Source of the DNA: Gemmatales bacterium
Lineage (GTDB): Bacteria; Planctomycetota; Planctomycetia; Gemmatales; HRBIN36
DNA length: 59,484 nt
Assembly (NCBI GenBank): GCA_025056555.1
Contig: JANWVZ010000001.1
Coordinates: 1 to 59,484, forward strand
Direction: 5' to 3'
Part shown: positions 7,635 through 33,571 of the stretch, piece after piece
Numbering within the stretch: the stretch's first letter is position 1
Layout: each line of letters opens with the position of its first letter
The notes under the pieces: generated by a model
What the model was told of the DNA's origin: nothing
Databases searched by the model: none
What the model saw: only the letters and a program-made list of their open reading frames with translations
Made by a program: the position numbers and the translations under genes

Positions 7635-7933
7635 CCCTAGGCTTACGCGCGCAGACGGCCGAAACAGAAGCCACGTAGCCCACCACGATTCTTGTTTTTT
7701 CCCACAGCTTATCGCTCTCAGGGCGACAGGCTTGCGTAGATGGCACCGAGCCCCATACGGACGAAGTTTCTCCAACTCGCCGATACGGAGGCCTTCTCGG
7801 CCATCGAGGTCAGTGCTCCACCGAAAGGTAACAAGCCGCGTTTGGGGCCACCGGTGCATGCGAACTGTTGACCCACCTCTGCCAGTGGGATAGCATAAGC
7901 ACTCAGGCTTGTTCGGCTCAGGAGGTCGCAACC

Positions 7934-8848
7934 ATGGGGCAGCCAATCAGCGGTGCACAATCCGATCAAGCAAGTTTAGGCATGGCTCAGGTTATTGACG
8001 TTTTGAAGAAACAAGGAACCACCACGATCGCATGCGACGCGGAACGAGTGGTCTTTGCTTATGAGGGGGGAGGGCGTTTCCGATTGGTCAAGCTCAGTGT
8101 CATTCACTCAGGTATCCTGCCTGCGAATATAATTGAGGCCAATTCTGGAATCATCGAGCTGGAAGATTGCGTCTTCCGAGGTGCGGTTTGGAGCGAAGAG
8201 AAAAAGTTGGGTGGGAATGGTGTGTGGTTACACGGCGTGGTTCGGGCCACGGTGCGGAACTGCCGGTGCATTGACAATGCGGTGCACGGTATACACGTTT
8301 CGGAACATGCCCAGACGCTACTCGACAGCAACATCTGCGAGCGAAATAAGGGCAACGGTATCAGTTATTTCGACAATGCTGGGGGCACAGCCCAAAACAA
8401 CACCTGCCGAAATAATGGCTGCCATGGGATTGAAGTGTGCGATAAGGCGCAGCCCGTGCTCGAAGGCAACAACTGTGAGGGTAATGGAAGTAACGGCATT
8501 TACTATGGGGGTAATGCTGGAGGCACAGCCCGAAACAACGTCTGTCGGAATAATAACAAAGACGGCATCAGCGTGAGCGACCAGGCGCAGCCCCTGCTCG
8601 AAGGCAACACCTGCGAGGTCAATAAGGAATGTGGCATTGCATTTCGTGGTAAAGCTGGAGGTACTGCCCGCAAGAATGTCTGTCGCAACAATGGCACTTA
8701 TGGGATTTTTTTGGATTACGATGTCAAGCCTGTGTTAGAGGATAATTTCAGTGATAAGACCAAACAAGAAAGTGCTCTTTTTGGTTGCTTAGTCCTTATC
8801 TTTTTACTGGCAATCATCGCTGCGCTCGTTTGGTACTTCTTCTTCTAA
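7934..8848 (+). CDS. right-handed parallel beta-helix (PbH1) repeat protein with C-terminal transmembrane anchor
   Basis: ATG at 7934 preceded by GGAGG at 7921-7925. Four tandem 46-aa units of the type NNxCRNNxxxGIxVxDxAQPxLEGNxCExNxxxGIxxxGxAGGTAx. The last 25 aa (LFGCLVLIFLLAIIAALVWYFFF) are a hydrophobic anchor. Confidence 0.75.
   Translation: MGQPISGAQSDQASLGMAQVIDVLKKQGTTTIACDAERVVFAYEGGGRFRLVKLSVIHSGILPANIIEANSGIIELEDCVFRGAVWSEEKKLGGNGVWLHGVVRATVRNCRCIDNAVHGIHVSEHAQTLLDSNICERNKGNGISYFDNAGGTAQNNTCRNNGCHGIEVCDKAQPVLEGNNCEGNGSNGIYYGGNAGGTARNNVCRNNNKDGISVSDQAQPLLEGNTCEVNKECGIAFRGKAGGTARKNVCRNNGTYGIFLDYDVKPVLEDNFSDKTKQESALFGCLVLIFLLAIIAALVWYFFF
8258..8760 (+). repeat. in-frame tandem 138-nt (46-codon) coding repeats inside the PbH1 gene
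   Basis: Unit boundaries read from the sequence: 8258, 8396, 8534, 8672 (last unit partial). The units are diverged at the DNA level but keep the same peptide pattern. Confidence 0.7.
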
Positions 8849-9184: not shown

Positions 9185-10483
9185 ATGGAACCGCTCGGCA
9201 TTGCGCTTTTGGGCTGTGGTACGGTCGGTAGTGGTGTGGCGCGACTGCTGCTGACAGAAAATGAGCGACTATCCAAGCGGGCAGGTCGGCCATTACGATT
9301 GCGCTGGGTTCTGGTGCGCGACCCGTCGAAACCGCGCGGCGTGGCCTTGCCCAGCGACATCATCACCACCGACTTTCGCACGGTGCTGCGGGATCCGCAG
9401 GTAATGGTGGTCATCGAACTGATTGGCGGGCTGGAACCCGCGCGGCACTTTATTTTGCAGAGCCTCGAGGCGGGCAAAGACGTGATCACCGCCAATAAGG
9501 CGGTACTGGCGCACTACGGCGACGACATCTTCGAGACTGCACGGCGCTACGGGCGGACAGTCGCTTTTGAAGCCAGCGTGGGCGGCGGTATTCCCATTAT
9601 CGCGGCACTCGCCGAGGAATTGGCCGCGAACCAAATTCTAAGCATTCAGGCCATCCTCAACGGTACCAGCAACTTTATCCTGACGCAGATGCAGGAGGAA
9701 GGTGTCAGTTACGAGGCAGCCTTAGCGGAGGCCCAGCGACGAGGTTATGCTGAAGCCGACCCTACTCTCGACGTCAGCGGGGCCGATGCCGCTCATAAGT
9801 TGGCCATATTGTCGCGGTTGGCGTTTGGCCCAGGACCGAGCGTCCAGGAGATCTTTTGCCGTGGTATTGACCAGTTGCAACTGGCCGACCTGCGTTTTGC
9901 TCAGGAATTAGGCTACACTATCAAATTGCTCGCCGAAGCCTGGTTGCAGGATGGTCAGGTGGCTTTGCACGTGGAACCGACACTGATACATCGTTTGGCA
10001 CCGTTAGCTCAGGTGCGAGGTGTGTACAATGCCATCCTGGTACGCGGCGATGTCGTCGGTCAAACGCTCTACGCTGGCCGCGGCGCCGGACAGATGCCGA
10101 CCACTAGCGCTATCCTCGCCGATCTCATTGACTTGGCTATTGGCCGCGCACAGCTTACCTTCCGCACGCTGCGGCTCTGGGAGAACCACAACCGACTACC
10201 ATTACGCCCCCCCGAACGCATTCGCAGCCGATTTTATTTGCGGATCACCGTCGAAGATCGGCCCGGCGTCATTGGTGAGGTAGCGACAATCCTCGGCAAA
10301 CATCAGGTCAGCATCTCCTCGGTAATCCAGCACGAGGCGTTGGACGAGTGTGAGGGCGAAGCTGTACCTGTCGTGATTATGACGCACACGACGAACTTGT
10401 CGGCATTTCGTCTCGCGGTGGCCCAGATCGACCGTCTCTCCTGCGTCGCCGCCCCCAGCATCTACTACCCCGTCGCAGATTGA
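9185..10483 (+). CDS. hom: homoserine dehydrogenase
   Basis: 432-aa ORF. N-terminal Rossmann motif IALLGCGTVGSGV, a central catalytic region (NGTSNFILTQM, EADPTLDVSGADAAHKL) and a C-terminal ACT-like domain. Confidence 0.93.
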   Translation: MEPLGIALLGCGTVGSGVARLLLTENERLSKRAGRPLRLRWVLVRDPSKPRGVALPSDIITTDFRTVLRDPQVMVVIELIGGLEPARHFILQSLEAGKDVITANKAVLAHYGDDIFETARRYGRTVAFEASVGGGIPIIAALAEELAANQILSIQAILNGTSNFILTQMQEEGVSYEAALAEAQRRGYAEADPTLDVSGADAAHKLAILSRLAFGPGPSVQEIFCRGIDQLQLADLRFAQELGYTIKLLAEAWLQDGQVALHVEPTLIHRLAPLAQVRGVYNAILVRGDVVGQTLYAGRGAGQMPTTSAILADLIDLAIGRAQLTFRTLRLWENHNRLPLRPPERIRSRFYLRITVEDRPGVIGEVATILGKHQVSISSVIQHEALDECEGEAVPVVIMTHTTNLSAFRLAVAQIDRLSCVAAPSIYYPVAD

Positions 10484-10597
10484 GTCTAGAACGACTTGGA
10501 AGCCAGGATGCCAGGTCATCGGAAATAGAATCGCACTCATGAACGAAGTAGGCGAGCACAGTTACCACAATCGCTGGCAAGCTGATCATTTAGTTCA

Positions 10598-13500
10598 TTA
10601 TGATTGCTGTGTATCCCTTATGAAGGATACGACATAACGTGCATCGCGTTCAACCTCCACGTAGAGCACGCCTTTGGACATGTCCCACCGTAGCCACACC
10701 CGACGGTCGTGCCAACTCACTAGATCAACGTAGGTATCACTTTCCTGCCAGCGATTGTGATGCTTAATTTCAGGGTGAATTAGGAGCTCAGGGGGCTCCT
10801 GGGCATTAGACGGCGGTAGATATCTTAACTGATGAGCCTCGTCCCTGGGAGCAAAAGTGAGGATTAGCTCCCGACCAGTACTAACCGTGCGTATTTCCAG
10901 CAAGTCTCCTATCTCTCGGCGGTCCCCCGGGTTGAGATAAATAGTTCGTACCCGTGCACGGAACCGTTGCAACCGCTGCTCTGCACTTGCCTTCCTCTTG
11001 GATAGTTCAGACAGCCACTTATCACGATCACGATCAACATGATTCATTATTTGCTCTAAACGCTCATAATACTCGACAGCGCGCTTGCGAAACGGCGCTT
11101 GCTCGACAAACCTGCCGCATAGTATAGCGCGTGACAAGAACGCACTGCTATCAATCGATTGTCCGATTTTTCCTGAAGCGCCAAGTCTATCTAAGTGCTC
11201 TAATAAAGCATAACCGATGGCGTCAACTAATCTGGCCAAGCGAGGCCATGTAGGTGATTCGGCAACATTTTCGTAGGCACAAATCCAATCCTCAATACCG
11301 TCAGCCACCAACCTTAGCGTATTCGACAAAATCATCTGGATAGGGTCATCCTCTTTACTCGGGCGCAGGCAGTACAGGACAAGCGACTGGGCATCTTCTC
11401 CAGACAAGTCACCCGCATCACTAACCCAGTTCATCAAGTAGCGCCGTAAGCTTGCTTCTAATTCGGGGATATTGCCAGGTGCTCCTAACGGCCTTCTCGA
11501 AGAATACCACACAAGTTCCAAACATAACAATGCCAAGTTGGCGGCCGCTTCCAGCCCCTTGTAATGCCTGTCGGCGAAGAATTGCTTGCTGAAATCGAGA
11601 GCGGACTGCGTGAGCAACTCGAGTATCTTCAGCCAGTGAGGATCAGAGCCTGCAGCAGCTTGTGCCTCCAAATAGCGAATTATCCTATCGCTCCTGGATG
11701 CTAAAGCGAAACCATGGATGACAGCTTCCATGATGTGTTTGCTAGCAGATTGCCCAGTTGGCAATGGGGTTGTCATGGACTGGGGCAGGAAAGATCGGCG
11801 TAAGATCTCGAGTAGAAACTCTGCACTCCAACGTTCAATCCAACGGTCAACTATGCGGCTCTTTTGGTACCTTGTGTGAAACTCTTCGATGAAACTCTTA
11901 GTATCCTTTGCATTGAGATATAACTTGCCACTTTCCAATCTCTGCCAAAAGTCCTGAAGCCAAAGACGATCTTCAGCACTCTCGATACGTCGCTGATCTT
12001 CCTCAGGCAAAATTTGTTCGCCTGTTTGGGTTTTGTGATCATACTCCTGGAGGATGCGTTGAAAGTCGCCTGCCTGCTCCCACCAGCGCAGGCATAGGGG
12101 ATAAGGTGAGGATTCGGCCTTGGCGATGAAGTAATCGCGGTGCTGAGTTTCCTCCGCTTTCTCCCAATGGTCTGCGGCTAAGCCGTAGCGCTCCAACCGG
12201 TAACTCAAACGCGCTAATTCGTTTTGCCAGGACTTATAGTTACGAGCGTAAGGCTCTTTCGGAGCTATTTCCACGGCCAGATGATAGGCAAGTTCCAGCG
12301 ATACGCTAGAGATGGGGGTCATCTGCCCCGATTTTTTGCACAAGGATAACACGAGATCATTCCAAACTTTCCAGGTGCGTTTATGGCGTTCCGACTCATG
12401 AACCTTGCGTTGAAGCACTAAGTCTTCCAGTTTCCGAAGCAGCGACCTGGCTGCGTCGTCCGTAGCTTGCTTCCGCCAGTGCGAGTAAGCCCGCGCTAAC
12501 TCGCGGCGCCAGGTGGGTTCCACTTCCCGTCCTGCTAACTCGTCCCAAGCAGATTCCGAATCCAGCGTGGCCTCCCAGAACCAATCGGAAGCCAGGGCTT
12601 TATCAAGAGACCACATCTTGTGAGCTGCGGCGAGTACCTCGCCTTGATAATACTGGCGCCATGCCAACATGCGTTCCTTATCCAGGGGTTTTTCCGCGCG
12701 ATCGTAATAATAAGCGGCACGTTCCGCATGCTCAGCGTTTTTCTGATCATGAGCCAGGCGCTCAAACTCCTTAGCGAGTTCGAGCCATCGGCCAATAAAT
12801 GCCTGGGTCATTTCGCGCAAATCAGCGGGACTCCAGTCAAAACCCACGCGCGCCTCGGTTTGTGGATTTTGTCGGAGCCAGCGTTGCAACTCTTCCCAAA
12901 ACTTCTGCCAACCTTCCTGCGTTTCTACCAGCCAGAGCGTTTCGCGCGCACGGCTGACAGCCACGTAGAGGTTATTTAGGAAAAACTCCGCCTGGAAGCG
13001 TTTCGACTCATCAATCTCGGGATTGTCCACCGCGTTGCGCCAATTCCAAAAGTCCTTCAGACCCAGCAATTGGAAAAACGCTCCAAAGCCGAGCACTACT
13101 ACATGCTCTTGTTCAAGGCCCTTGATCTGTGCCACGGTTACGTAATTGACTCGATCAGATGGGCTCTGGTCAAAACCTAACTTTCTCCAAAAGGCAGTGG
13201 TCTCCTGAAACTGCGGGTCGTCGGGAACCGGACCGATGACGAGGACGCCTTCGCGTAGGAGGTATTCGACCGACTCTCTCACCGCTCTCGGCTCACCGTC
13301 TAACAAGACTCGGCGTACGCGCAGGTTGGCCTGTATATCGTCGGGTTGCCAAATGTTTTGCAATTCTGATTTATGTCCGAGCGTGTGTTGCCGCAATAAT
13401 TGAATCGCGTTACATAATAGCGCGATACTCGGAGCGTTGCGGTAGTTATAGTGTAGTTTTAATCGGGGGACTCGGGCGGGCGGCAGACTGGCGACATGTT

Positions 13501-15388
13501 GGGTCAAAGCGTGCGCAATATCGGAACTCACGCGCTCCCAGCGAAAGCAGCTGGGATTCACTGTTTGATGAGCATCCCCCGCGAAGATAATGGGCAAAGG
13601 CAACTCCTCGTTGGATAAGCCCAGAAGGCCGGGAATGGCAGCGAGGTTATACTGCATCCAGCTGAGACTGCTCAAGAGGCTGGCTATCTCGACCCGCGAG
13701 AAATCCTGCGCTTCGTCGCAAACCAGAATGTCATATTTGGGCGCATCAGGACGTCGGTGCTGCAACACTTCCCAAGCTAAGTCGAGGTCATCCCAGTAGC
13801 TCGGAATCTCATCCTCCTTACTCGGCACGGTGAGGCGCTTGTACCAAGGCCAAACTTGCTCCCAAACTACTCGGTAGAGATCAGAGGAGACCTGCCTGTC
13901 CTTATCGGGTATAACCTCTCTATCTTGATATTCTTCGAAACTCAGCCAGCGATCCTCGCCCCGCTCGTGGACCTTATACCCCTTGATGTAACTGCGGAGA
14001 ACGAACCAGATCGCCTCGGGGCTGTAACGACGTCCCGCAGCGTTCCGTAAGCCGTCAGGACCATAACCCCGCATCAAATCCGTAAACCTGGAAAAGCTAA
14101 TGTAACCGCCTCGCTGTCCTGCAGCGACGGTCAGGAAACGCTCGCGGCGTGCCGGCGGCAATTGTTCAAGGGCCCACTCCTGGTAAGTCTTATAATCAGA
14201 CAGGATGTTCTGGAGATTCTGCGATGTGCCAAGTTGCTGCACGAGACGATAACGAATGCGCTCGATAAGGTCACTGGCTTTATTAATGAGGCTCTGGCTC
14301 TGGCTGATGTAGAGCAAACGATAAGGACGTTCGTTACTTGATGCGGCGTGGTCTGCTTCCGTCCCCGCCAAGCGCTCGGCCGTGTAGTAAATCAGCAGAG
14401 TGGATTTACCGCTGCCCGCGCGTCCCTCGAGGACACACGGCAGAGTTTTTCCTGCGAGGATGTTTTCCAGGTTGGACATCTCGTTGGTGGACAACGGTAA
14501 AAAGACTTCGCGTTGTCGCCAGACTTCTTGGAACAACCCCTCATCAACGAGCAAGTAAGCTGGAAAGGCTCGCTCGGCTAATTGGCTGAGCGCGTCGAAG
14601 AAGTCGTGGGAACGTGTACATTTCGACTCCAGAACATGGGCACGTAATCGGTTATAAAGCCTTCGAGCTTCCGTCTCGGCGCTTTGGCATTGTTCCGAGG
14701 GCCAATCGAAGCATACGATACCCAACAAGAAAACATGCTGGAGGTTTAATTCTGGCTCTCGGAGTCGGACGTAGATAACCTTTATAGAGTTTTCTGCGCG
14801 TTGCAAAAGCTGTTCGCGCTCTTCACCAGTGGTTTCCCAAATACCGCATAAGAGCTTGTAAAAAGTTGCACGCTGGGTCTCTAATCTCAGCAACTCATAC
14901 GACCGCCGGACATGTGGTGGTATGAAAAAGGCATCAGCCCGTTCCTGCGGGCGTAACCCGCGCAATAGGGAAAGTAAGTGGTAATCTGGGTCGGGCGGGG
15001 CTGGCGGTGGTGGTTTTCTTCGAAGCTCCTGCTCTACATGCTTCTGGATCTGCGGCGCGTGCGCTTCGAGAAGTGAGCCATAATATTTCTCCAACCTAGC
15101 CGGATCGCCGTTGCAATATTGACCGGAGTCACGCGGCACGAAAGCCACTAACACGACACAATGAACATGCCCGCGATCATGAGGCACCGTCTCTAACTTG
15201 GCCACCAAGCGATAGGGATCGTACCGCCTCTTAAACCAACAGTTTCCTAACGCCTCAAAATAGGGGAGGAAGCCTAACGAATTGGCTGGGCCTACTTCAT
15301 CGAGCTGTTGGATGAGTTCCATAAGCCTCCTGCGATATTGCGGCGGCGCTTCGGCGACGGACGGCATTTCATACACCACATAGCCCAT
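10598..15388 (-). CDS. 1596-aa SF1 (UvrD/Rep-like) helicase-family NTPase with large unassigned N- and C-terminal regions
   Basis: ATG at 15388 with GGAGGGG 9 nt upstream. Walker A is LEGRAGSGKST (G322-T330 at 14399-14425). Motif II is ILVCDEAQDF (D558-Q561 at 13706-13717). Also present: IFAGDAHQTV, LHYNYRNAPSI, VTVAQIKGLEQEHVVV, LYVAVSRARETLWLV. It is the only minus-strand gene between two plus-strand genes. Confidence 0.85.
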   Translation of the reverse strand: MGYVVYEMPSVAEAPPQYRRRLMELIQQLDEVGPANSLGFLPYFEALGNCWFKRRYDPYRLVAKLETVPHDRGHVHCVVLVAFVPRDSGQYCNGDPARLEKYYGSLLEAHAPQIQKHVEQELRRKPPPPAPPDPDYHLLSLLRGLRPQERADAFFIPPHVRRSYELLRLETQRATFYKLLCGIWETTGEEREQLLQRAENSIKVIYVRLREPELNLQHVFLLGIVCFDWPSEQCQSAETEARRLYNRLRAHVLESKCTRSHDFFDALSQLAERAFPAYLLVDEGLFQEVWRQREVFLPLSTNEMSNLENILAGKTLPCVLEGRAGSGKSTLLIYYTAERLAGTEADHAASSNERPYRLLYISQSQSLINKASDLIERIRYRLVQQLGTSQNLQNILSDYKTYQEWALEQLPPARRERFLTVAAGQRGGYISFSRFTDLMRGYGPDGLRNAAGRRYSPEAIWFVLRSYIKGYKVHERGEDRWLSFEEYQDREVIPDKDRQVSSDLYRVVWEQVWPWYKRLTVPSKEDEIPSYWDDLDLAWEVLQHRRPDAPKYDILVCDEAQDFSRVEIASLLSSLSWMQYNLAAIPGLLGLSNEELPLPIIFAGDAHQTVNPSCFRWERVSSDIAHALTQHVASLPPARVPRLKLHYNYRNAPSIALLCNAIQLLRQHTLGHKSELQNIWQPDDIQANLRVRRVLLDGEPRAVRESVEYLLREGVLVIGPVPDDPQFQETTAFWRKLGFDQSPSDRVNYVTVAQIKGLEQEHVVVLGFGAFFQLLGLKDFWNWRNAVDNPEIDESKRFQAEFFLNNLYVAVSRARETLWLVETQEGWQKFWEELQRWLRQNPQTEARVGFDWSPADLREMTQAFIGRWLELAKEFERLAHDQKNAEHAERAAYYYDRAEKPLDKERMLAWRQYYQGEVLAAAHKMWSLDKALASDWFWEATLDSESAWDELAGREVEPTWRRELARAYSHWRKQATDDAARSLLRKLEDLVLQRKVHESERHKRTWKVWNDLVLSLCKKSGQMTPISSVSLELAYHLAVEIAPKEPYARNYKSWQNELARLSYRLERYGLAADHWEKAEETQHRDYFIAKAESSPYPLCLRWWEQAGDFQRILQEYDHKTQTGEQILPEEDQRRIESAEDRLWLQDFWQRLESGKLYLNAKDTKSFIEEFHTRYQKSRIVDRWIERWSAEFLLEILRRSFLPQSMTTPLPTGQSASKHIMEAVIHGFALASRSDRIIRYLEAQAAAGSDPHWLKILELLTQSALDFSKQFFADRHYKGLEAAANLALLCLELVWYSSRRPLGAPGNIPELEASLRRYLMNWVSDAGDLSGEDAQSLVLYCLRPSKEDDPIQMILSNTLRLVADGIEDWICAYENVAESPTWPRLARLVDAIGYALLEHLDRLGASGKIGQSIDSSAFLSRAILCGRFVEQAPFRKRAVEYYERLEQIMNHVDRDRDKWLSELSKRKASAEQRLQRFRARVRTIYLNPGDRREIGDLLEIRTVSTGRELILTFAPRDEAHQLRYLPPSNAQEPPELLIHPEIKHHNRWQESDTYVDLVSWHDRRVWLRWDMSKGVLYVEVERDARYVVSFIRDTQQS

Positions 15389-15555
15389 AGTTGTGCCCCT
15401 CCTATGCGGGTCTTAGAATGAGCTACGGATGTCTCATAAACACCCGTGGTGAGCATCGGTCCCGTTCGCCCAGCATGGAAAAAGATCTTGCTTACTCATA
15501 AAAAACAACGTGCAGGGCCGGCGAATTGTGACAAATTTTCACCCTCAAAGGAGGG

Positions 15556-16050
15556 ATGGAGGTAGTGGCCTTGACCTTTCGCGATGGCGCGATTGAAGGG
15601 GTGATTTGGTATTCGTTACGGCGCCACGAAGATATGAGAGGCTGGTTGTGTGAACTCTTTCGTCATGATGAGATACCGCCGGTGTGTTATCCGCAGATGG
15701 CCTACGTCTCAATGACCAGGCCGGGAGTGATTCGCGGACCACATGAGCATCGCTTTCAATATGATCTGTTTTGCTTCGTCGGCCCTTCCGATTTCCGCGT
15801 ATATCTCTGGGACAATCGGCGTAGTTCCCCGACGTATGGTGTGCGCCAAATCGTAGAAGCGGGCGAAAGTCAACCGCGAGCCGTGATCATTCCGCCGGGA
15901 GTCGTGCATGCTTACCGCAATATCGGCTCGGTGCCGGGCTGGGTGTTTAACGCTCCGAACCAGCTGTACGCCGGCTGGAAACGGTCTCAAGGTGTGGATG
16001 AAATCCGCTACGAGAACGATCCGCAATCGCCATTTCGCATCGAAGACTGA
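15556..16050 (+). CDS. dTDP-4-dehydrorhamnose 3,5-epimerase-like cupin protein
   Basis: 164-aa ORF; AGGAGGG precedes the ATG. The cupin/RmlC-like pattern is RGWLCELFR...GVIRGPHEH...DLFCFV...PPGVVHAYRN. Confidence 0.7.
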   Translation: MEVVALTFRDGAIEGVIWYSLRRHEDMRGWLCELFRHDEIPPVCYPQMAYVSMTRPGVIRGPHEHRFQYDLFCFVGPSDFRVYLWDNRRSSPTYGVRQIVEAGESQPRAVIIPPGVVHAYRNIGSVPGWVFNAPNQLYAGWKRSQGVDEIRYENDPQSPFRIED

Positions 16051-16189: not shown

Positions 16190-19100
16190 TTACGGGCCGA
16201 GCTCTTCTTTCTGGCGTTTCTTGAAGAGTTCCCGGAGGAGTTGATTGATTTTTTCCTGGGCTTTGATCAGGTCGCGGAGGATTTCCAGGGCTTTAGCGTA
16301 TTCGATCAGGCCTTTGATCTCGTTGATGACTTTACTGAAGCGATCAATAAGCAGATTCATCTGGAGCACGGCAGGATCGAAAGTCGGGGGCCGGATACGT
16401 TGGCGTTCCTCGCGCAGCCGTTGTGCTAACAAAGCAAGCGTTTCCTGAGCAAGGTCAAACTGGTCACCGTCGCGAACGAGTTGTTCCAGGGGTCGGCAGA
16501 TTTTCTCGTCGAGGCGGTCGAGTTCCTTTTGTTGCACCCGGTTGAACCATAGTTCGCGGTAGATGAGCCGTAAGTCGCGAATGATTTCCCGTTGTACCAC
16601 GTCGCGGGCATCCACGACGGCCCGCTGGGCATCTTCCGTGTCGCGAGCAAACCGCAGGGCCAGGTCTTCGGTGAGCTGCTCGGCTTCGCTGCGCATCTTG
16701 ACCAGTTGGTCGCGAATACTGGTGAGCTTCACCAGGATGTTGTCGCAGCGTTCGCGGATTTCTTCTTCGCGCCGTGACTCCTCGATGAGCAGGTCGTCTT
16801 CCGTGACCACGTTGAACTCGAAGGCAGCGTGATACACGGTCCGCTGCGGTTCCGAGCGTAACCGGGCTTCCGAACCTACGGTCAAACGATTATCCTGAGC
16901 GACCAGGCGCACCACCAGGCGATAAGGCGGGGCCAGGGGTTTGGTAATCATTTTCTTCGGATTGTTGGGGTCGGGCACGGTCACATCCCGAGGCACCAGT
17001 TCGGTGAGGAGGAACTCGTCGGTACCGGTCAGGAACGGTGCTCCCAGGGGCCGCATCTCATAGCGAAATTCATGTTCGACCACCTGCTCGAAAACCGGAG
17101 GCAGAGCGAGTGCGAAGACGCCCGCATGCGGTGCTTGCAGAAGCATGCCCGCGGGTGATGCCGCCTGGCTGCCGATCGTGCGGAAAGGTACAACCCGCGC
17201 GAGGCTGCGCTGCGCTACGCCGCCTCGAAGGGTTCGCGACTGAACCCAGCGCGTCCATCCTTCGCCGGAACCAAGCTCCAGGCTGTCCAGGTTATCGAAC
17301 GTGATAACCGGACTGAAGGTGCGTAATGGTATTCGAGTGGGCGGACCGAGGGGCTTGCCGTCGTTTTGAATCACAGTGACTTCGTAGTATAGTTCGGTCA
17401 GGCCGTTGTCGTCGCGCACCAACCCGCTGAACGGAATAATCGCGCGCGGAGTGATGGCTTCTCGGCGGACGACTTCGAAGTTGGCATATTGAAATTCGGG
17501 TTCCTTATCAGGCTGCGGAACAATGGTCACGCGGCGGGAGTTACGGATGCCTTCTATATCAGTGAAGCGGAAAACCAGCCGCAGTTCTTCGCTGGACAGC
17601 GGACGCAACCAGACAGCGAACCCGTCTGTTTCGGGAGTGAATTCCAATCGCTGTAGGTACGGATTGGTCGTTTCCAGTTGATGGATCGTGTGAGCCAAGG
17701 CCGATAAAGCAAAGGGGGACGCGGGGTCGCCCAGCAGGGAATGAAACAAGGCATGGACAGCGACAGTGGCGTACAGATCAGTTTCGCGTTGTTCCTGCAA
17801 TGCGATTTCGAGCGCTTGTAGAGGCTTGGTGGTTCGCCCGATGAGTCGGATTTGGGCGCCCAGCGGTGCATCGAAGCGAATTTCCTGGTTCCCTTCCAGG
17901 GCAGCGCTGATGGGGCCGCGTTCGACCCAGTCATTGGAGGCGTGGAGGTGGCCTGGTTCGCGTTGCCAGCGAACCAGCTCGCGCAAAGTGGGCAAGGGAC
18001 GCACTTCGATGCGGTACCAGGGAGTAACGGCATCGCCAGCATAGACACGAAAACGACGGGGGCGTTCGATGCGGCGAAACTCGTAGCGGTACTGGAAACT
18101 GCCAGGCGAACGATTGACTGGCAAGCGTTCCGTTTGAGCGCGCATGCGACGCCGCTCCTCCTCGGTAAGGATTTCCTCGTATTCCAGGGTCACTTGGTCG
18201 TAAATTCGCAGCCGGCGGAAATAGATGCGCCGTCCCCAGTGGCGCTGCTCGGCACGATGGCGCAGCGCTTCGAAGAGTTGGCCCAGTTGGGTATTGACGG
18301 CTCGGCCCAGGCCGAGGATGGAAAATCGTTCGGCCAATTGTGTCAGCCGGCGCTCCAGTTCCGCAGCCGGCAGTCCCTGCCAGCTGGCCGGCAGGTCGCG
18401 GTATTCCGCCGCAGACCAGCTCAAGGGAGGTAATTGCTCAGCTAGACCGCTGCTCCAGAATATCTGCTGAAGGACGCCCGTGGAAATGAGCGGCGCCGGC
18501 ACCATCGCATGAGCCGCGACGTAGGCCCATAAGGCATCTTCGGTGGTGATGGGCGGCCTGCGCAAAGTTTCCAGCCGATGACGGATTTCTTCCTGACTGA
18601 GCCGACGAGCTAATTGCAGATGTTCGTAAATCTGGGCCAGGGAATAATCCCGCCATTCTGCGGGGAGCCAACGTAAGATTTCCTCATCGGGTTGTGCAAG
18701 GGCACGCTCTGTAGCGCTGACTTGGGCTAAACGCGCTTCAAGGCGCGGGAGTAAGTAGGCAATGACCGCACGGCCCAGTTCACCGAGATGTTCGACGGCT
18801 TCGGCCCGCAGTTGCTGCGCGGACATGGCCTGGTGGCGAGCTTCGACTTCATCCAGCGTCAACTGACGCCAGGATTCCGGTAATACTTCCATCCAGGAAC
18901 GTGGCCCGACCGGAGCCTGCAGCTCCCAAAAATGAGCACGCTCGGAGCTGAAGGGGTCTGCAGGGTCATCAGGGTTGGGGAAAACGTCTCTCCAGATGGC
19001 CGGGCGCCAGCCGCTGGGGTAATCGGGATGGTCGGTGCGCACGACGTTGACCCAGGCTTGAATGCGAATGGGCATTTCGCCGCCGCTTGGAACTCCGCGT

Positions 19101-19795
19101 ACTGGATGTTGAGCGAAGTCGGGCAACACCAGCATAGTGCGGACAGGCCAGTGCCGGTTCAACCAGGCGATGTTACGCTCCCAGCATGTTGCCGACCATT
19201 CCGTGGCAAAGTAGCCCAGAGCGGCAACAGTTGCCCACAGTCCTAGCATAAAGAATAACAGCTGTCGCAGGCGTGCCCAATTGAAAACGGCGCCGACGGG
19301 AATGTGTTGCAGGCGCTCCTCGGCAGTGCGGGCTGTGTATTCAACCAGCAAGTACGAATAGCCATAGCGTGCTGCGGTTTGAGGGTCGGCCAGTTCCACA
19401 GCCGTTACCAGGCGTTCCTCGAGCACTTGGGGGAATCGTCGTTCCAACACCAGGGCCAAGGCTTCGGGCCGAAACGTTACGAGCAGCCGATAGACCAGCC
19501 GATAGCTGACAAGGTACACTGCACCTGCCACGAATATGAGCCACCATAACGCACGGAACATCAATATCCCAGCGGGAGAACCATCGCGGATGTAATCGAG
19601 ACCCAACACCACAAACAAGCCATAGTCTACTAAGAACAGTGCCCAGAACCATACCGCTATGGCGATAAGTGCCTGCAGGAGAACCTCACTCACGACGAAA
19701 GTGCGAATGCCGCGACGAAGACGCTGCAAGGAACGACGAATGGCAGGACGTTCCGCTAATGCAACTTCGGAAGCAGAGGTCTGCATCGTGGCCAT
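16190..19795 (-). CDS. large membrane protein, last gene of the MoxR/DUF58/BatA/vWA cluster (no domain recognised)
   Basis: The ORF extends to a TTG at 19879 (1229 aa). The first in-frame ATG is at 19795. Several N-terminal TM helices (LLQALIAIAVWFWALFLVDYGLFVVLGL...) and a C-terminal charged coiled-coil-like tail. Same strand as, and directly downstream of, the vWA gene. Confidence 0.75.
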   Translation of the reverse strand: MATMQTSASEVALAERPAIRRSLQRLRRGIRTFVVSEVLLQALIAIAVWFWALFLVDYGLFVVLGLDYIRDGSPAGILMFRALWWLIFVAGAVYLVSYRLVYRLLVTFRPEALALVLERRFPQVLEERLVTAVELADPQTAARYGYSYLLVEYTARTAEERLQHIPVGAVFNWARLRQLLFFMLGLWATVAALGYFATEWSATCWERNIAWLNRHWPVRTMLVLPDFAQHPVRGVPSGGEMPIRIQAWVNVVRTDHPDYPSGWRPAIWRDVFPNPDDPADPFSSERAHFWELQAPVGPRSWMEVLPESWRQLTLDEVEARHQAMSAQQLRAEAVEHLGELGRAVIAYLLPRLEARLAQVSATERALAQPDEEILRWLPAEWRDYSLAQIYEHLQLARRLSQEEIRHRLETLRRPPITTEDALWAYVAAHAMVPAPLISTGVLQQIFWSSGLAEQLPPLSWSAAEYRDLPASWQGLPAAELERRLTQLAERFSILGLGRAVNTQLGQLFEALRHRAEQRHWGRRIYFRRLRIYDQVTLEYEEILTEEERRRMRAQTERLPVNRSPGSFQYRYEFRRIERPRRFRVYAGDAVTPWYRIEVRPLPTLRELVRWQREPGHLHASNDWVERGPISAALEGNQEIRFDAPLGAQIRLIGRTTKPLQALEIALQEQRETDLYATVAVHALFHSLLGDPASPFALSALAHTIHQLETTNPYLQRLEFTPETDGFAVWLRPLSSEELRLVFRFTDIEGIRNSRRVTIVPQPDKEPEFQYANFEVVRREAITPRAIIPFSGLVRDDNGLTELYYEVTVIQNDGKPLGPPTRIPLRTFSPVITFDNLDSLELGSGEGWTRWVQSRTLRGGVAQRSLARVVPFRTIGSQAASPAGMLLQAPHAGVFALALPPVFEQVVEHEFRYEMRPLGAPFLTGTDEFLLTELVPRDVTVPDPNNPKKMITKPLAPPYRLVVRLVAQDNRLTVGSEARLRSEPQRTVYHAAFEFNVVTEDDLLIEESRREEEIRERCDNILVKLTSIRDQLVKMRSEAEQLTEDLALRFARDTEDAQRAVVDARDVVQREIIRDLRLIYRELWFNRVQQKELDRLDEKICRPLEQLVRDGDQFDLAQETLALLAQRLREERQRIRPPTFDPAVLQMNLLIDRFSKVINEIKGLIEYAKALEILRDLIKAQEKINQLLRELFKKRQKEELGP

Positions 19796-19929
19796 GGTGT
19801 TCACCTGATGCCCGTTACCTATCGGGGGAGCGTTGGATACGGTTGGTTGATCGAGATCGGTAAGGTTCGGGTTAGTCAAGCGCGCTCTAAGAAGGCCGAA
19901 AAGCGACGCCCCAGAGAAAGGGCGTCAGG

Positions 19930-32608: not shown

Positions 32609-33193
32609 TTATTCCTGCTGCGACTTCTTTCTGAGCGGAATGGTGTAAAGATACACAGTTCGCTCGAAGCCGTCAGCATTCACACGTTCCACCTTATCGG
32701 GTTCGTAGCCAGGAATCTCAAAGGAATGCGACACGATACGGGATCCCGGCTTCATCTTTTGCAGCTGAGGAACGAGTTTTTCGTTGAGCGAGGTGAGTAA
32801 ATAAAGCGTGATTACGGAAGCTCCGCTCAGATCGAGCGTAAAAATATCTTTTTGCTCAATCTTGACGAGGTCTTCGACCCCATTCTTGCGAACGTTCTCT
32901 AAAGACTCTTTAACCCGCACGGGATCGATGTCAAAACCGACAGCTTTGCAACCGTACTTCTTTGCTGCGGTAACGACAATGCGTCCGTCCCCGCAACCGA
33001 GATCGTAAACTACGTCCGCCTTGGTAACCTTAGCCAGTTCCAGCATCCGTTCCACAACTGGCTGGGGCGTGGGTACGAAAATGACGTCAGGCCTGCGCTC
33101 CTGTCCCGAAGCACAGCTCAATAGCAAGGCTAAACCTAAGGTCAGCCCTACCGTGGTCAAGCCTAGACTCAGTTGCACCAGCCTCTGCTTCAT
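32609..33193 (-). CDS. class I SAM-dependent methyltransferase with lipoprotein-type signal peptide
   Basis: Start set at ATG 33193 with GGAGG upstream. MKQRLVQLSLGLTTVGLTLGLALLLSC has a lipobox-like LLSC. SAM motif I is VVYDLGCGDGRIV. Confidence 0.8.
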   Translation of the reverse strand: MKQRLVQLSLGLTTVGLTLGLALLLSCASGQERRPDVIFVPTPQPVVERMLELAKVTKADVVYDLGCGDGRIVVTAAKKYGCKAVGFDIDPVRVKESLENVRKNGVEDLVKIEQKDIFTLDLSGASVITLYLLTSLNEKLVPQLQKMKPGSRIVSHSFEIPGYEPDKVERVNADGFERTVYLYTIPLRKKSQQE

Positions 33194-33571
33194 AGCGATA
33201 CCTCCGTTGGGTTGGTGAAGTCGGCTCTTGCGGCTCGTTGCCGTATTGGCAACTAGCATATACGGCCACTCCCATGGATTCAATCCCTTGGTTTGACCGA
33301 ATCTCAAAGCCAGGCTGGCTATACGCCCGGAACATTTCGCAAACCTGCCAGCCATCTTTTTTTCGATACATCCCATAAGACCTGCACGTCAGTCTGACCT
33401 CTATGTCTGGGTTGATTATGTCCGCCGCTGGCGCTGGGCGATACTAACTTGCAGAGCAAGCCGTCTGCTTCAGACTGGTGTCCCTATCGCTCTGATGGCA
33501 TCCCCTCAACCCCACACACTATTCCCACCCCTGAGGAAGCCGACGGGCTTGCAGCCACAAATGGAGGCGAT

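Follow-up and report, generated by a model that had tools for sequence, protein, structure and literature searches.

The stretch of DNA analysed here, called the window throughout, covers 59,484 nucleotides from a Gemmatales bacterium. It contains a 1596-aa protein with a superfamily 1 (SF1) helicase core and long flanking regions, which raises the question of what such a protein does for the cell. A reading made from the sequence alone had proposed a stand-alone defence or surveillance system of a type not yet described. We followed up this proposal with profile searches, structure prediction, and a survey of homologues and their genomic neighbourhoods.

The gene in its window

The coding sequence is complete (10598..15388, minus strand), with an ATG start and 1596 codons followed by a stop, and the ORF listing bears out that no other ORF in the window is longer. 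A 100% identical protein is found at NCBI under the name 'ATP-binding domain-containing protein [Gemmatales bacterium]'. The Shine-Dalgarno sequence attributed to the gene is present as AGGAGGGG (15396..15403, minus strand), which was read from the sequence 7 nt upstream of the ATG. On either side of the gene, 114 nt (10484-10597) and 167 nt (15389-15555) are free of coding sequence, in agreement with the earlier figures, and the gene is indeed the only one on the minus strand between hom and a dTDP-sugar-epimerase-like cupin gene, both on the plus strand. From 16190 onward, a VWA/BatA/DUF58 cluster is again on the minus strand. The neighbours in the window (MatE, a beta-helix protein, hom, the cupin, and the VWA/BatA cluster) are housekeeping genes. 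A small co-directional ORF that could be a cognate antitoxin is absent beside the gene, the flanks between hom and the cupin gene being non-coding. No CRISPR-like tandem array was found in the window, an Rfam scan of the gene region gave no match, and scans for promoters and terminators returned only chance-level results.

The sequence-only reading had taken low GC as a sign of horizontal acquisition. The whole gene has a GC content of 52.6% compared to 57.2 ± 2.3% for the 26 other ORFs in the window, and a GC3 of 57.1% compared to 63.6 ± 4.0%. It therefore does lie below the window mean, by about 2 SD in GC, but the claim was overstated, since the dip is mild and two ORFs are lower still (7868-8848, 51.0%; 32609-33376, 51.4%). 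A similar dip was seen at 21 of 24 family loci, irrespective of host GC. Because the dip is small and family-wide, it provides no evidence of recent acquisition in this genome, and a recent horizontal transfer read from GC was dropped. The GC content of family genes also tracks that of the host genome over a range of 0.30-0.63, suggesting that the gene is well ameliorated.

Domain architecture of the 1596-aa protein

The first ~125 residues (aa 1-125; 15014..15388, minus strand) are predicted to be a RelE-type domain, an assignment made from profile-profile probabilities below 90% together with predicted topology and residue conservation. The AF2 model has a beta-alpha-alpha-beta-beta-beta(-beta)-alpha topology (DSSP: E4-7, H9-12, H16-31, E45-56, E59-70, E73-85, H89-94; pLDDT mostly >90), which corresponds, as a predicted structure, to the compact RelE/ParE-type fold. 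The core of this fold spans aa 1 to ~95 and is followed by helices. When the family's N-terminal profile was compared to a RelE profile, hhalign gave a Prob of 87.2% and a pairwise E of 3.9e-6 over the whole domain, and a profile of 170 sequences gave a Prob of 88.8%. Overall, these comparisons ranged over Prob 87-89% and E 2.5e-6 to 3.9e-6, with 78-79 columns aligned. The RelE profile was validated by its matches to PDB RelE entries at ~1e-30, column-shuffled controls gave a Prob of at most 1.2%, and the other domains of the protein scored below 1% against the same profile. Other comparisons were negative or marginal: in Pfam, one family member each matched YoeB_toxin (E 0.05) and ParE_toxin (E 0.14), both below gathering; a PDB hmmsearch with the family profile returned no RelE entry; and single-sequence hhalign of the N-terminus against E. 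coli RelE was not significant. An alignment that mixed five toxins (RelE/YoeB/YafQ/ParE/HigB) was discarded for its poor quality.

Residue conservation points in the same direction. The RelE-type residues of the domain are K53 (15230-15232), R54, R60 (15209-15211), R86 (15131-15133), and Y91 (15116-15118), all encoded on the minus strand. Among 170 sequences, lysine or arginine is found at position 53 in 163 and at position 54 in 165, R60 is present in all 170, position 86 is arginine or lysine in 168, and Y91 is kept in 162. K53, K/R54, R60, R86, and Y91 align with K52/K54, R61, R81, and Y87 of E. coli RelE, which we take to be its catalytic residues. No nuclease had been recognisable to the sequence-only reading, but by profiles, topology, and residues the N-terminus now reads as a predicted RelE-like RNase domain. 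By analogy with RelE, it would be an RNase that depends on the ribosome; a RelE fold can also be a non-catalytic RNA- or ribosome-binding module.

A second alpha/beta module follows (aa 133-300; 14489..14992, minus strand), with the topology beta-alpha-alpha-beta-beta-beta-alpha in the AF2 model. It ends in the conserved motifs DALSxLAERAFPxYLLAD and REVFLALS, after which the helicase begins, and its profile had no match in the PDB. A second RelE-like domain was considered here because of the similar topology, but was rejected at an hhalign Prob of 0.4-0.7%.

The SF1 core (aa 301-830; 12899..14488, minus strand) is of the UvrD/PcrA/Rep-like kind, as seen from motifs, Foldseek, and AF2. Every motif quoted in the sequence-only reading was found, including Walker A GRAGSGKST (aa 322-330; 14399-14425, minus strand), the DEAQ of motif II (aa 558-561; 13706-13717, minus strand), AGDAHQT, NYRN, KGLEQE, and YVAVSRAR. 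The SF1A set is complete, with motifs I, Ia, II (DExQD), III (GDxxQ), IV (YR), V, and VI (TRA/SRA), and the key motif residues are invariant in 21 full-length homologues. Motifs Ia and II are separated by a large W-rich insertion that is conserved. The AF2 model of the N-terminal half (pLDDT 88.5, pTM 0.90) was compared to the PDB with Foldseek, and the core matched PcrA (1pjr, E 2.7e-12) and UvrD (2is4, E 5e-11), both with prob 1.00. The top matches were PcrA, UvrD, Rep, FBH1, AddA, and AdnB; Sen1, Upf1, Aquarius, and ZNFX1, all RNA helicases, are also among the structural neighbours. Against BFVD, the same model found only generic viral SF1 helicases. Pfam scores for the protein stayed below gathering (UvrD_C_2, 23.8 bits with a cutoff of 27.4; UvrD_C, 13.6 with a cutoff of 25.6). 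Taken with the lack of a conserved partner gene described below, the motifs support an SF1 NTPase that stands alone, appears competent for catalysis, and carries large additional domains.

Downstream of the core, the model continues as a TPR-like alpha-helical solenoid (aa 831-1480; 10949..12898, minus strand; AF2 pLDDT 87.7) and ends in an all-beta domain of ~11 predicted strands (aa 1481-1596; 10601..10948, minus strand), both being confidently modelled. Foldseek with the C-terminal model gave only generic TPR/solenoid matches (CTR9, Ski3, SPINDLY) at TM <0.2, and the beta domain had nothing significant in the PDB or Pfam. The ~300 aa upstream and 770 aa downstream of the core had been called unassignable. 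This holds for single-sequence scans, which were sub-threshold, but profile and structure methods assign most of both regions, the 770 aa being a solenoid and a beta domain by AF2 and Foldseek.

Within the family, sequence varies most in the solenoid, where identity to homologues is 22-34%, compared to 38-57% for the N-terminal half. In two contigs of related hot-spring assemblies, the DNA is 99.7% identical as far as codon ~890. Past this point no DNA similarity remains, and at the protein level the C-terminal regions of their two homologues are likewise much more divergent. Such a break, if a true strain difference, is what an exchangeable sensor region would be expected to produce.

Distribution, neighbourhoods and alternative functions

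From this architecture, the explanation that we favour, and to which we give about an even chance, is a single-polypeptide conflict NTPase directed against phages or mobile elements, made up of a RelE-type effector, an SF1 motor, and a TPR/beta sensor. The spread and the neighbourhoods of the homologues bear on this reading and on its alternatives.

The so far unnamed family comprises 582 clusters at 50% identity from several phyla. Full-length members are mostly 1350-1780 aa among the 150 matches listed, and all 50 homologues examined keep ~290-360 aa ahead of Walker A. Neither Pfam, NCBIfam, nor PADLOC has a model for the family, and single-sequence scans of the 1596-aa protein against the three gave only sub-threshold Walker-A or UvrD_C matches. 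The proposed PADLOC check likewise returned no known defence model for this protein or for six diverse family members. PDB searches with profiles of the whole family, the N-terminus, the second module, and the C-terminal beta domain yielded nothing significant, the matches to CmeR, CagY, and a designed Ig being at chance level. The phyletic check pointed to a patchy distribution, a pattern-limited scan of 185,579 species genomes recovering 15 loci in Planctomycetota, Desulfobacterales, and Myxococcota. Relatives from metagenomic bins bear the names Bellilinea, Rhodocaloribacter, and Hadarchaeum. No homologues were found on viral contigs, nor the family proper on plasmids. The synteny check showed that the position of the gene varies between Gemmatales genomes, and one genome has two divergent paralogues (P0008 and P0016).

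Across ~16 independent locus types there is no conserved partner gene, in line with the earlier statement that none could be found, but a predicted RelE-like effector is built into the protein itself. By an informal count, about one-third of the independent loci (~6 of 16 locus types) adjoin defence genes. These include type I-U and type III CRISPR-Cas, PsyrTA, a PLD-SNF2 helicase (locus L029), and an R-M-like cluster. The PsyrTA assignment (locus L026) was made from Pfam domains, which identify a RecQ-PRTase gene and a DprA-like gene as probable PsyrT and PsyrA. As in the window, the gene is surrounded by ordinary metabolic genes at three other loci (L010, L012, L013). Gene order is shared inside two planctomycete sub-lineages (L012/L030/L032/L034 and L002/L004/L017), which a vertically inherited cellular function would explain just as well. 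Arrays beside the L004 and L017 homologues were ruled out as CRISPR, since whole units are conserved, and the L004 arrays had no match in Rfam. A 1645-aa neighbour at L031 was also ruled out as a paralogue and is a membrane P-loop protein.

The metabolic neighbours and the synteny within lineages are among the points that suggest another possible explanation, namely cellular RNA surveillance or ribosome quality control. Here an Upf1/Ski-like arrangement of SF1 RNA helicase and TPR scaffold would bring the RelE-like A-site nuclease to aberrant mRNAs or to ribosomes that have stalled. Ribosomes are the site of action of the RelE fold, the core resembles Sen1, Upf1, Aquarius, and ZNFX1, the solenoid resembles Ski3 and CTR9, and the well-ameliorated GC follows the host. 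We nevertheless consider surveillance unlikely: the 15 loci of the pattern-limited scan are a very patchy spread, one genome carries two divergent paralogues, closely related Gemmatales genomes have the gene at different loci, and defence genes recur as neighbours. The C-terminal region is also variable and apparently swappable, and PcrA and UvrD, both DNA helicases, are the best matches in structure.

Somewhat less probable again is an ancillary helicase serving other defence modules, such as type I-U or type III CRISPR-Cas, with the RelE-like domain as a non-catalytic part that binds nucleic acid or the ribosome. Several loci would fit this. At L018 a type III effector operon lies directly downstream of the family gene on the same strand with a 168-nt gap, at L001 the gene follows type I-U cas genes, and cas6 is near it in three Gemmatales contigs (L002, L004, L017); a known protein of similar layout, ArmD, functions only in a four-gene system (see below). 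A consistent linkage to cas genes or arrays was not found, however, being limited to L001, L018, and the L002/L004/L017 group; at most other loci, the window included, none of the flanking ORFs examined was a cas gene. The associated systems are of unrelated types, which looks like co-location in defence islands and not a fixed partnership, and the strong conservation of the RelE catalytic-type residues would be hard to explain in a purely structural module. A role in DNA repair or replication, as a UvrD/AddA/RecB/Dna2-type helicase whose accessory domains are unusual, might be suggested by the top Foldseek matches but is highly improbable and largely refuted by the domain assignments, given RelE-like and TPR-like accessory domains, no RecB, PD-(D/E)xK, or HNH nuclease domain in Pfam, PADLOC, NCBIfam, or PDB profiles, no AddB/RecC-like partner, a rare and patchy distribution, and Pfam UvrD models below gathering.

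Relation to known systems and proposed mechanism

The conflict NTPase that we favour has relatives in layout among known defence proteins. ArmD, a RelE-like and GajB-like helicase fusion, is needed for phage defence by ARMADA II, its Walker A lysine is also required, and the E. coli protein (WP_000218177.1) works only together with ArmA, ArmB, and ArmC in a four-gene system (10.1101/2025.09.15.676423). Both proteins have an N-terminal RelE-like predicted RNase, a linker of ~150-200 aa, and a UvrD/GajB-like SF1 helicase, but ArmD is 704 aa long and is without the TPR or beta C-terminal extension. Their similarity is at the generic SF1 level (BLASTP E 0.007, motif II only; hhalign Prob 19%), and their RelE-like domains have no detectable kinship (hhalign Prob 0.4%). 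The partners ArmA (BrxHII-like), ArmB (PglX-like methylase), and ArmC (YprA-like) are absent from the window and from the homologue loci examined. In these sequence comparisons, no membership of ArmD could be detected for the family.

CnuH of type II and III-A CoCoNuTs, a McrBC-type restriction subclass with predicted RNA targeting, similarly places a RelE/colicin-D-like domain, termed 'RNase toxin-like', ahead of its SF1 helicase (PMC11090510). It shares this order with the window protein but is described as having an additional SmpB-like OB-fold domain (PMC11090510). No CoCoNuT (McrBC-type) partner genes are near the window gene.

The best PADLOC match was to GajB, which is also a UvrD-like SF1 helicase, but the match was weak and partial (E 2e-5 over C-terminal motifs). 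GajB has ~500-600 aa, no RelE or TPR domains, and is complexed with the OLD-family nuclease GajA; no GajA-like OLD-family ATPase-TOPRIM gene lies beside the window gene. RelE/YoeB type II toxins share the predicted fold as well as its conserved tyrosine and basic residues, but they have a separate antitoxin, whereas the window domain forms the start of a 1596-aa NTPase and falls below Pfam thresholds. Cami1, a CARF-RelE ancillary protein of type III CRISPR described by Mogila et al. in 2023, reportedly has RelE fused to a sensor instead of an antitoxin. Finally, Avs/STAND proteins also combine an N-terminal effector, a central P-loop NTPase, and a C-terminal TPR-like sensor with variable repeats in a single polypeptide. 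Their NTPase is a STAND ATPase, in contrast to the SF1 helicase with two RecA-like domains in the window protein, which STAND models matched only at the Walker-A level. The claim of an undescribed type thus needs narrowing: fusions of RelE-like domains to UvrD/Upf1-like helicases are known from ArmD and CnuH, but a stand-alone RelE-SF1-TPR family is not among these.

In the mechanism that we propose, the N-terminal RelE-type endoribonuclease domain would be the effector, the UvrD-like SF1 ATPase/translocase the motor or switch, and the long TPR-like solenoid with the C-terminal beta domain the sensor or scaffold. In the uninfected cell, the RelE-like domain would be kept inactive inside a compact assembly with the helicase, the second alpha/beta module possibly being its inhibitor. 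The trigger might be an invader-derived ligand on the TPR/beta region or an encounter of the motor with invader nucleic acid. An ATP-dependent rearrangement or translocation would then expose or deliver the RelE domain, which would cleave mRNA, most probably in the A-site of the ribosome, like canonical RelE. This would shut down translation and abort the infection. The RNase activity and its ribosome dependence, the autoinhibition, the trigger, and the defence phenotype are all steps that we infer. The original defence proposal gains from the frequent defence-gene neighbours and the patchy spread, and is tempered by a function that is itself deduced and by the housekeeping neighbours in the window.

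A broader reading, which we hold only tentatively, is that the protein is the first of a widespread class of single-protein immune sensors in which an SF1 translocase with an exchangeable TPR/beta cassette governs an antitoxin-free RelE domain with ribosome-dependent cleavage. Such a class would be a helicase-based counterpart of STAND/Avs, sometimes located beside CRISPR-Cas. If the inferred defence function holds, several hundred clusters of ~1400-1800 aa now named 'hypothetical' or 'ATP-binding domain-containing' would become recognisable as a single-gene defence family. With no antitoxin, a RelE toxin would be kept in check by the ATP-driven motor and the variable repeat sensor to which it is fused, and this would bear on the mechanism of ArmD in ARMADA and of CnuH in CoCoNuTs. 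The family would also add to the small set of immune proteins thought to target translation and not DNA.

A predicted RelE-like domain ahead of an SF1 helicase

The gene at 10598-15388 (minus strand; 1596 codons, ATG start) is the longest ORF of the window, as a comparison of the window's ORFs confirmed. An NCBI protein from a Gemmatales MAG, labelled only "ATP-binding domain-containing protein," has exactly the sequence of its product. The surroundings described in the sequence-only reading were also confirmed: 114 nt separate the gene from the stop codon of hom (homoserine dehydrogenase; 9185-10483, plus strand), 167 nt separate it from a dTDP-sugar-epimerase-like cupin gene (15556-16050, plus strand), and it has its own Shine-Dalgarno sequence, AGGAGGGG, on the minus strand 7 nt upstream of the ATG. 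The second-largest ORF of the window (16190-19879, minus strand; 1229 aa) had no match in a Pfam scan and heads or adjoins a minus-strand VWA, BatA, DUF58 and presumably MoxR cluster.

Residues ~300-830 make up the SF1 core. All the SF1 motifs quoted earlier were found, with Walker A (GRAGSGKST) at 14399-14425 and DEAQ at 13706-13717, as claimed. Across 21 aligned full-length homologues, the key residues did not vary: G322-T330, D558/E559/Q561/D562, G604/D605/Q608/T609, N648/Y649/R650, K756/G757/E759 and Y808/V809/S812/R813. Single-sequence Pfam, NCBIfam and PADLOC scans gave only sub-threshold matches: UvrD_C_2 (23.8 bits; cutoff, 27.4), AAA_22 and Schlafen-helicase at Walker A, and PADLOC's GajB at the C-terminal helicase motifs. 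Therefore, homologues were collected and the structure was predicted in two halves (aa 1-860 and aa 826-1596), each supplied with a family alignment.

The model of aa 1-860 was confident (pLDDT 88.5, pTM 0.90), and residues 1-~125 are predicted to be a RelE/ParE-fold domain. The modeled order of beta(4-7), alpha(9-12), alpha(16-31), beta(45-56), beta(59-70), beta(73-85) and alpha(89-) is the RelE topology. A RelE reference profile was built from five RelE sequences and then validated against the PDB, where it finds the RelE entries 9g12, 1wmi, 3g5o, 3bpq and 4v7k (E 1e-29 to 1e-34). With hhalign, this profile matched the family N-terminal profile over the whole domain (Prob 87.2%, E 3.9e-6) and the 170-sequence family profile (Prob 88.8%), while 60 column-shuffled controls reached a Prob of at most 1.2%. 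Below-threshold Pfam matches to YoeB_toxin (E 0.05) and ParE_toxin (E 0.14) in two family members are likewise suggestive of a RelE-like domain. Of the 170 family sequences, all have R60, 163 and 165 carry K or R at positions 53 (K53) and 54, respectively, 168 carry R or K at position 86 (R86), and 162 keep Y91. hhalign pairs these five positions with K52/K54, R61, R81 and Y87 of Escherichia coli RelE, which are its catalytic residues. The fold match and the conserved RelE-type residues together provide a recognizable nuclease-type candidate effector, predicted to be an RNase and not a DNase, and the earlier claim that no nuclease could be recognized does not hold.

The flanks of the core had been called unassignable, which is no longer true of the RelE-like and TPR-like regions, given their profiles and structure, and stands for two others. 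One is a second alpha/beta module (aa ~133-300), whose predicted beta-alpha-alpha-beta-beta-beta-alpha order resembles that of the RelE-like domain. Two strongly conserved motifs at its end, DALSxLAERAFPxYLLAD and REVFLALS, form the transition to the helicase, and a profile search detected no relation to any PDB entry. The other is a predicted 11-strand beta domain (aa ~1481-1590) with no significant PDB or Pfam match. Each gave an hhalign Prob of <1% against the RelE profile. Between the core and the beta domain, the also confident model of aa 826-1596 (pLDDT 87.7, pTM 0.70) places an all-helical TPR-like solenoid (aa ~831-1480), for which Foldseek found only generic repeat proteins (CTR9, Ski3, SPINDLY/OGT and proteasome Rpn subunits; TM <0.2).

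Distribution, genomic context and base composition

A word-indexed search returned 50 relatives, and the N-terminal profile, used in an exhaustive HMM search, returned 582 clusters (50% identity) at E <= 1e-3; 332 of these had E <= 1e-10. Most full-length entries among the 150 matches listed are 1350-1780 aa long. The 50 homologues examined share the N-terminal KK...RL...R...Y pattern and, N-terminally truncated entries excepted, have ~290-360 aa before Walker A. Named sources include Gemmatales, Pirellulaceae, Thermoguttaceae and other Planctomycetota, together with Bellilinea (Chloroflexota), Rhodocaloribacter, one MAG each of Desulfobacterales and Myxococcota, and a Hadarchaeum bin; T9SS-type (Por_Secre_tail) neighbors at one further locus suggest a Bacteroidota-like host. 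One Pirellulaceae MAG carries two divergent paralogues (P0008 and P0016). The phyletic check proposed earlier showed the family to be rare, as a pattern-limited scan of 185,579 species genomes gave only 15 loci.

When the ORFs surrounding the homologues were compared all against all, no partner gene proved to be conserved across the ~16 independent locus types, in agreement with the sequence-only reading. Neighbors were shared within groups. In five Gemmatales contigs (L002, L004, L005, L017 and L035), the gene always lies between a DinB/PBP pair and cas6, and four Thermoguttaceae contigs (L012, L030, L032 and L034) have a 300-aa neighbor in common. Since the window gene sits between hom and the cupin gene, the gene has moved within the order Gemmatales. 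The DinB/PBP-cas6 interval also holds a pair of genes (~665 aa and ~640-720 aa) in some contigs, divergently upstream of the homologue in several (L004:3562-7586, L005:1740-5762, L014:1-2658, L017:4707-8730). This pair is missing from the otherwise syntenic L002 and resembles the variable cargo of a hotspot; PADLOC matched neither gene, and the second has a faint AAA_16 match. Two conserved tandem arrays with periods of 73 nt (~3 copies) and 75 nt (~7-12 copies) lie between the homologue and cas6 (L004:12844-14303, L017:15111-16130). They were rejected as CRISPRs since whole units are 80-96% alike and not repeat-spacer, and Rfam gave no match on the L004 arrays. Read on the minus strand, each 75-nt unit gives a very short ORF, MV(I/T)LGGLLFANPA and a stop, after a purine-rich stretch.

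Defence or mobile-element genes adjoin the homologue in at least six of the ~16 locus types; this count is informal, made without a background model, and is suggestive of an enrichment of defence genes. Type I-U cas3/cas7/cas5-6 genes lie directly upstream on the same strand in L001, a type III effector operon (Cas10 palm domain and five RAMP proteins) lies 168 nt downstream on the same strand in L018, and cas6 is nearby in L002, L004 and L017. RecQ-PRTase and DprA-like genes, to which PsyrT/PsyrA census matches were attributed, are found in L026, and a PLD-SNF2 helicase of PbeA/DrmD type in L029. Transposases adjoin homologues in L001 and L003, and tail-fibre-like collagen proteins do so in L020. 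A DUF4276 gene (L021:5808-6473), on the same strand as the Myxococcota homologue and overlapping its stop codon, may be a local partner, a pairing seen in L021 only. The remaining loci, the window included, have metabolic neighbors. Three tandem 102-aa ORFs precede the Desulfobacterales homologue (L019:4872-5866). A 1645-aa ORF immediately downstream of another homologue (L031:15020-19957), with predicted membrane segments and a P-loop (GVQRVGKT), was rejected as a paralogue for want of homology to the helicase, and PADLOC gave no match for it.

The window gene is low in GC, as had been claimed, at 52.6% compared to 57.2 +/- 2.3% for the 26 other window ORFs (GC3, 57.1% and 63.6 +/- 4.0%). The size of the effect had been overstated. 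ORFs 7868-8848 (plus strand; 51.0%) and 32609-33376 (minus strand; 51.4%) are lower, which shows that other genes of the window deviate more in composition. The former encodes a right-handed beta-helix/NosD-like protein. Gene GC was below that of the flanks in 21 of 24 family loci, by a mean of 2.7 points, and tracked host GC across 0.30-0.63. Therefore, the 4.4-point dip of the window gene is a family trait and no evidence of recent transfer into this Gemmatales genome. Accessory and defence genes often show such a trait.

Possible function and precedents

The defence or surveillance role proposed earlier is partly supported and considerably sharpened; the lack of a conserved partner stood, and the GC-based transfer and absent nuclease did not. 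From the observed architecture, residue conservation and context, we infer a stand-alone conflict system, to which we give an even chance. An invader-derived cue would be detected by the TPR/beta region or by the motor. SF1 ATP binding, hydrolysis or translocation would then cause a conformational change in the compact, putatively autoinhibited N-terminal assembly, and the RelE-like domain, if active, would cut mRNA, probably on the ribosome, with translation arrest as the expected phenotype.

In Foldseek searches, the SF1 core best matched PcrA, UvrD, Rep and FBH1 (E down to 2.7e-12), followed by Sen1, HelD, Aquarius, AddA, AdnB, Upf1 and ZNFX1. A cellular RNA-surveillance or ribosome-rescue helicase, with Sen1 and Upf1 among these matches and defence genes beside part of the homologues, is an unlikely alternative. 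Slightly less probable again is an ancillary factor for neighboring systems such as CRISPR-Cas, in which the RelE fold would be non-catalytic; cas genes adjoin some homologues, metabolic genes adjoin others, and the RelE-type residues are conserved. A repair helicase, with PcrA and UvrD heading the matches and a predicted RNase domain ahead of the motor, is very improbable.

The stand-alone defence or surveillance protein had been called a type not yet described. The family indeed lacks a name and is covered by no model in Pfam, NCBIfam or PADLOC. Its design principle, however, is already known from two published fusions of RelE-like domains to SF1 helicases that a literature search turned up, ArmD of ARMADA type II (10.1101/2025.09.15.676423) and CnuH of CoCoNuT systems (PMC11090510). 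ArmD (E. coli WP_000218177.1) is 704 aa long, with no TPR and beta extension. Its similarity to the window protein does not go beyond the generic SF1 level (BLASTP E 0.007; hhalign Prob 19%), its N-domain has no detectable relationship to that of the family, and its partner genes are missing near the window gene. CnuH (CoCoNuT type II/III-A) is alike by its published description, with a RelE/colicin-D-like "RTL" domain beside the helicase (PMC11090510). Avs/STAND sensors share the order of effector, P-loop NTPase and TPR repeats but differ from the window protein in NTPase class. A 1095-aa "UvrD-helicase domain-containing protein" on Crinalium epipsammum plasmid pCRI9333.06 (L040:5398-8685), with 24% identity over the helicase, may be a shorter, distant relative of the same architecture. 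By eye, its N-terminus is RelE/ParE-like, though profile tests on this single sequence were not significant, and its C-terminus has W-rich TPR-like repeats; DUF262 and DUF3696 genes and two integrases adjoin it.

Identity to the closer homologues is 38-57% in the N-terminal half and 22-34% in the C-terminal half. P0016 (binned as Pirellulaceae) and P0024 (binned as Bellilinea), on contigs from one hot-spring assembly series, have 99.74% DNA identity over 4212 nt (L003:6462-10670 and L039:1-4212), running from the upstream flank to codon ~890. Past this point, DNA similarity between the contigs is lost altogether, and at the protein level the TPR regions diverge far more. This break reflects either alternative C-terminal cassettes in co-occurring strains or a short-contig assembly or binning artefact. 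A real variant would be what one expects where diversifying selection acts on a sensor region.
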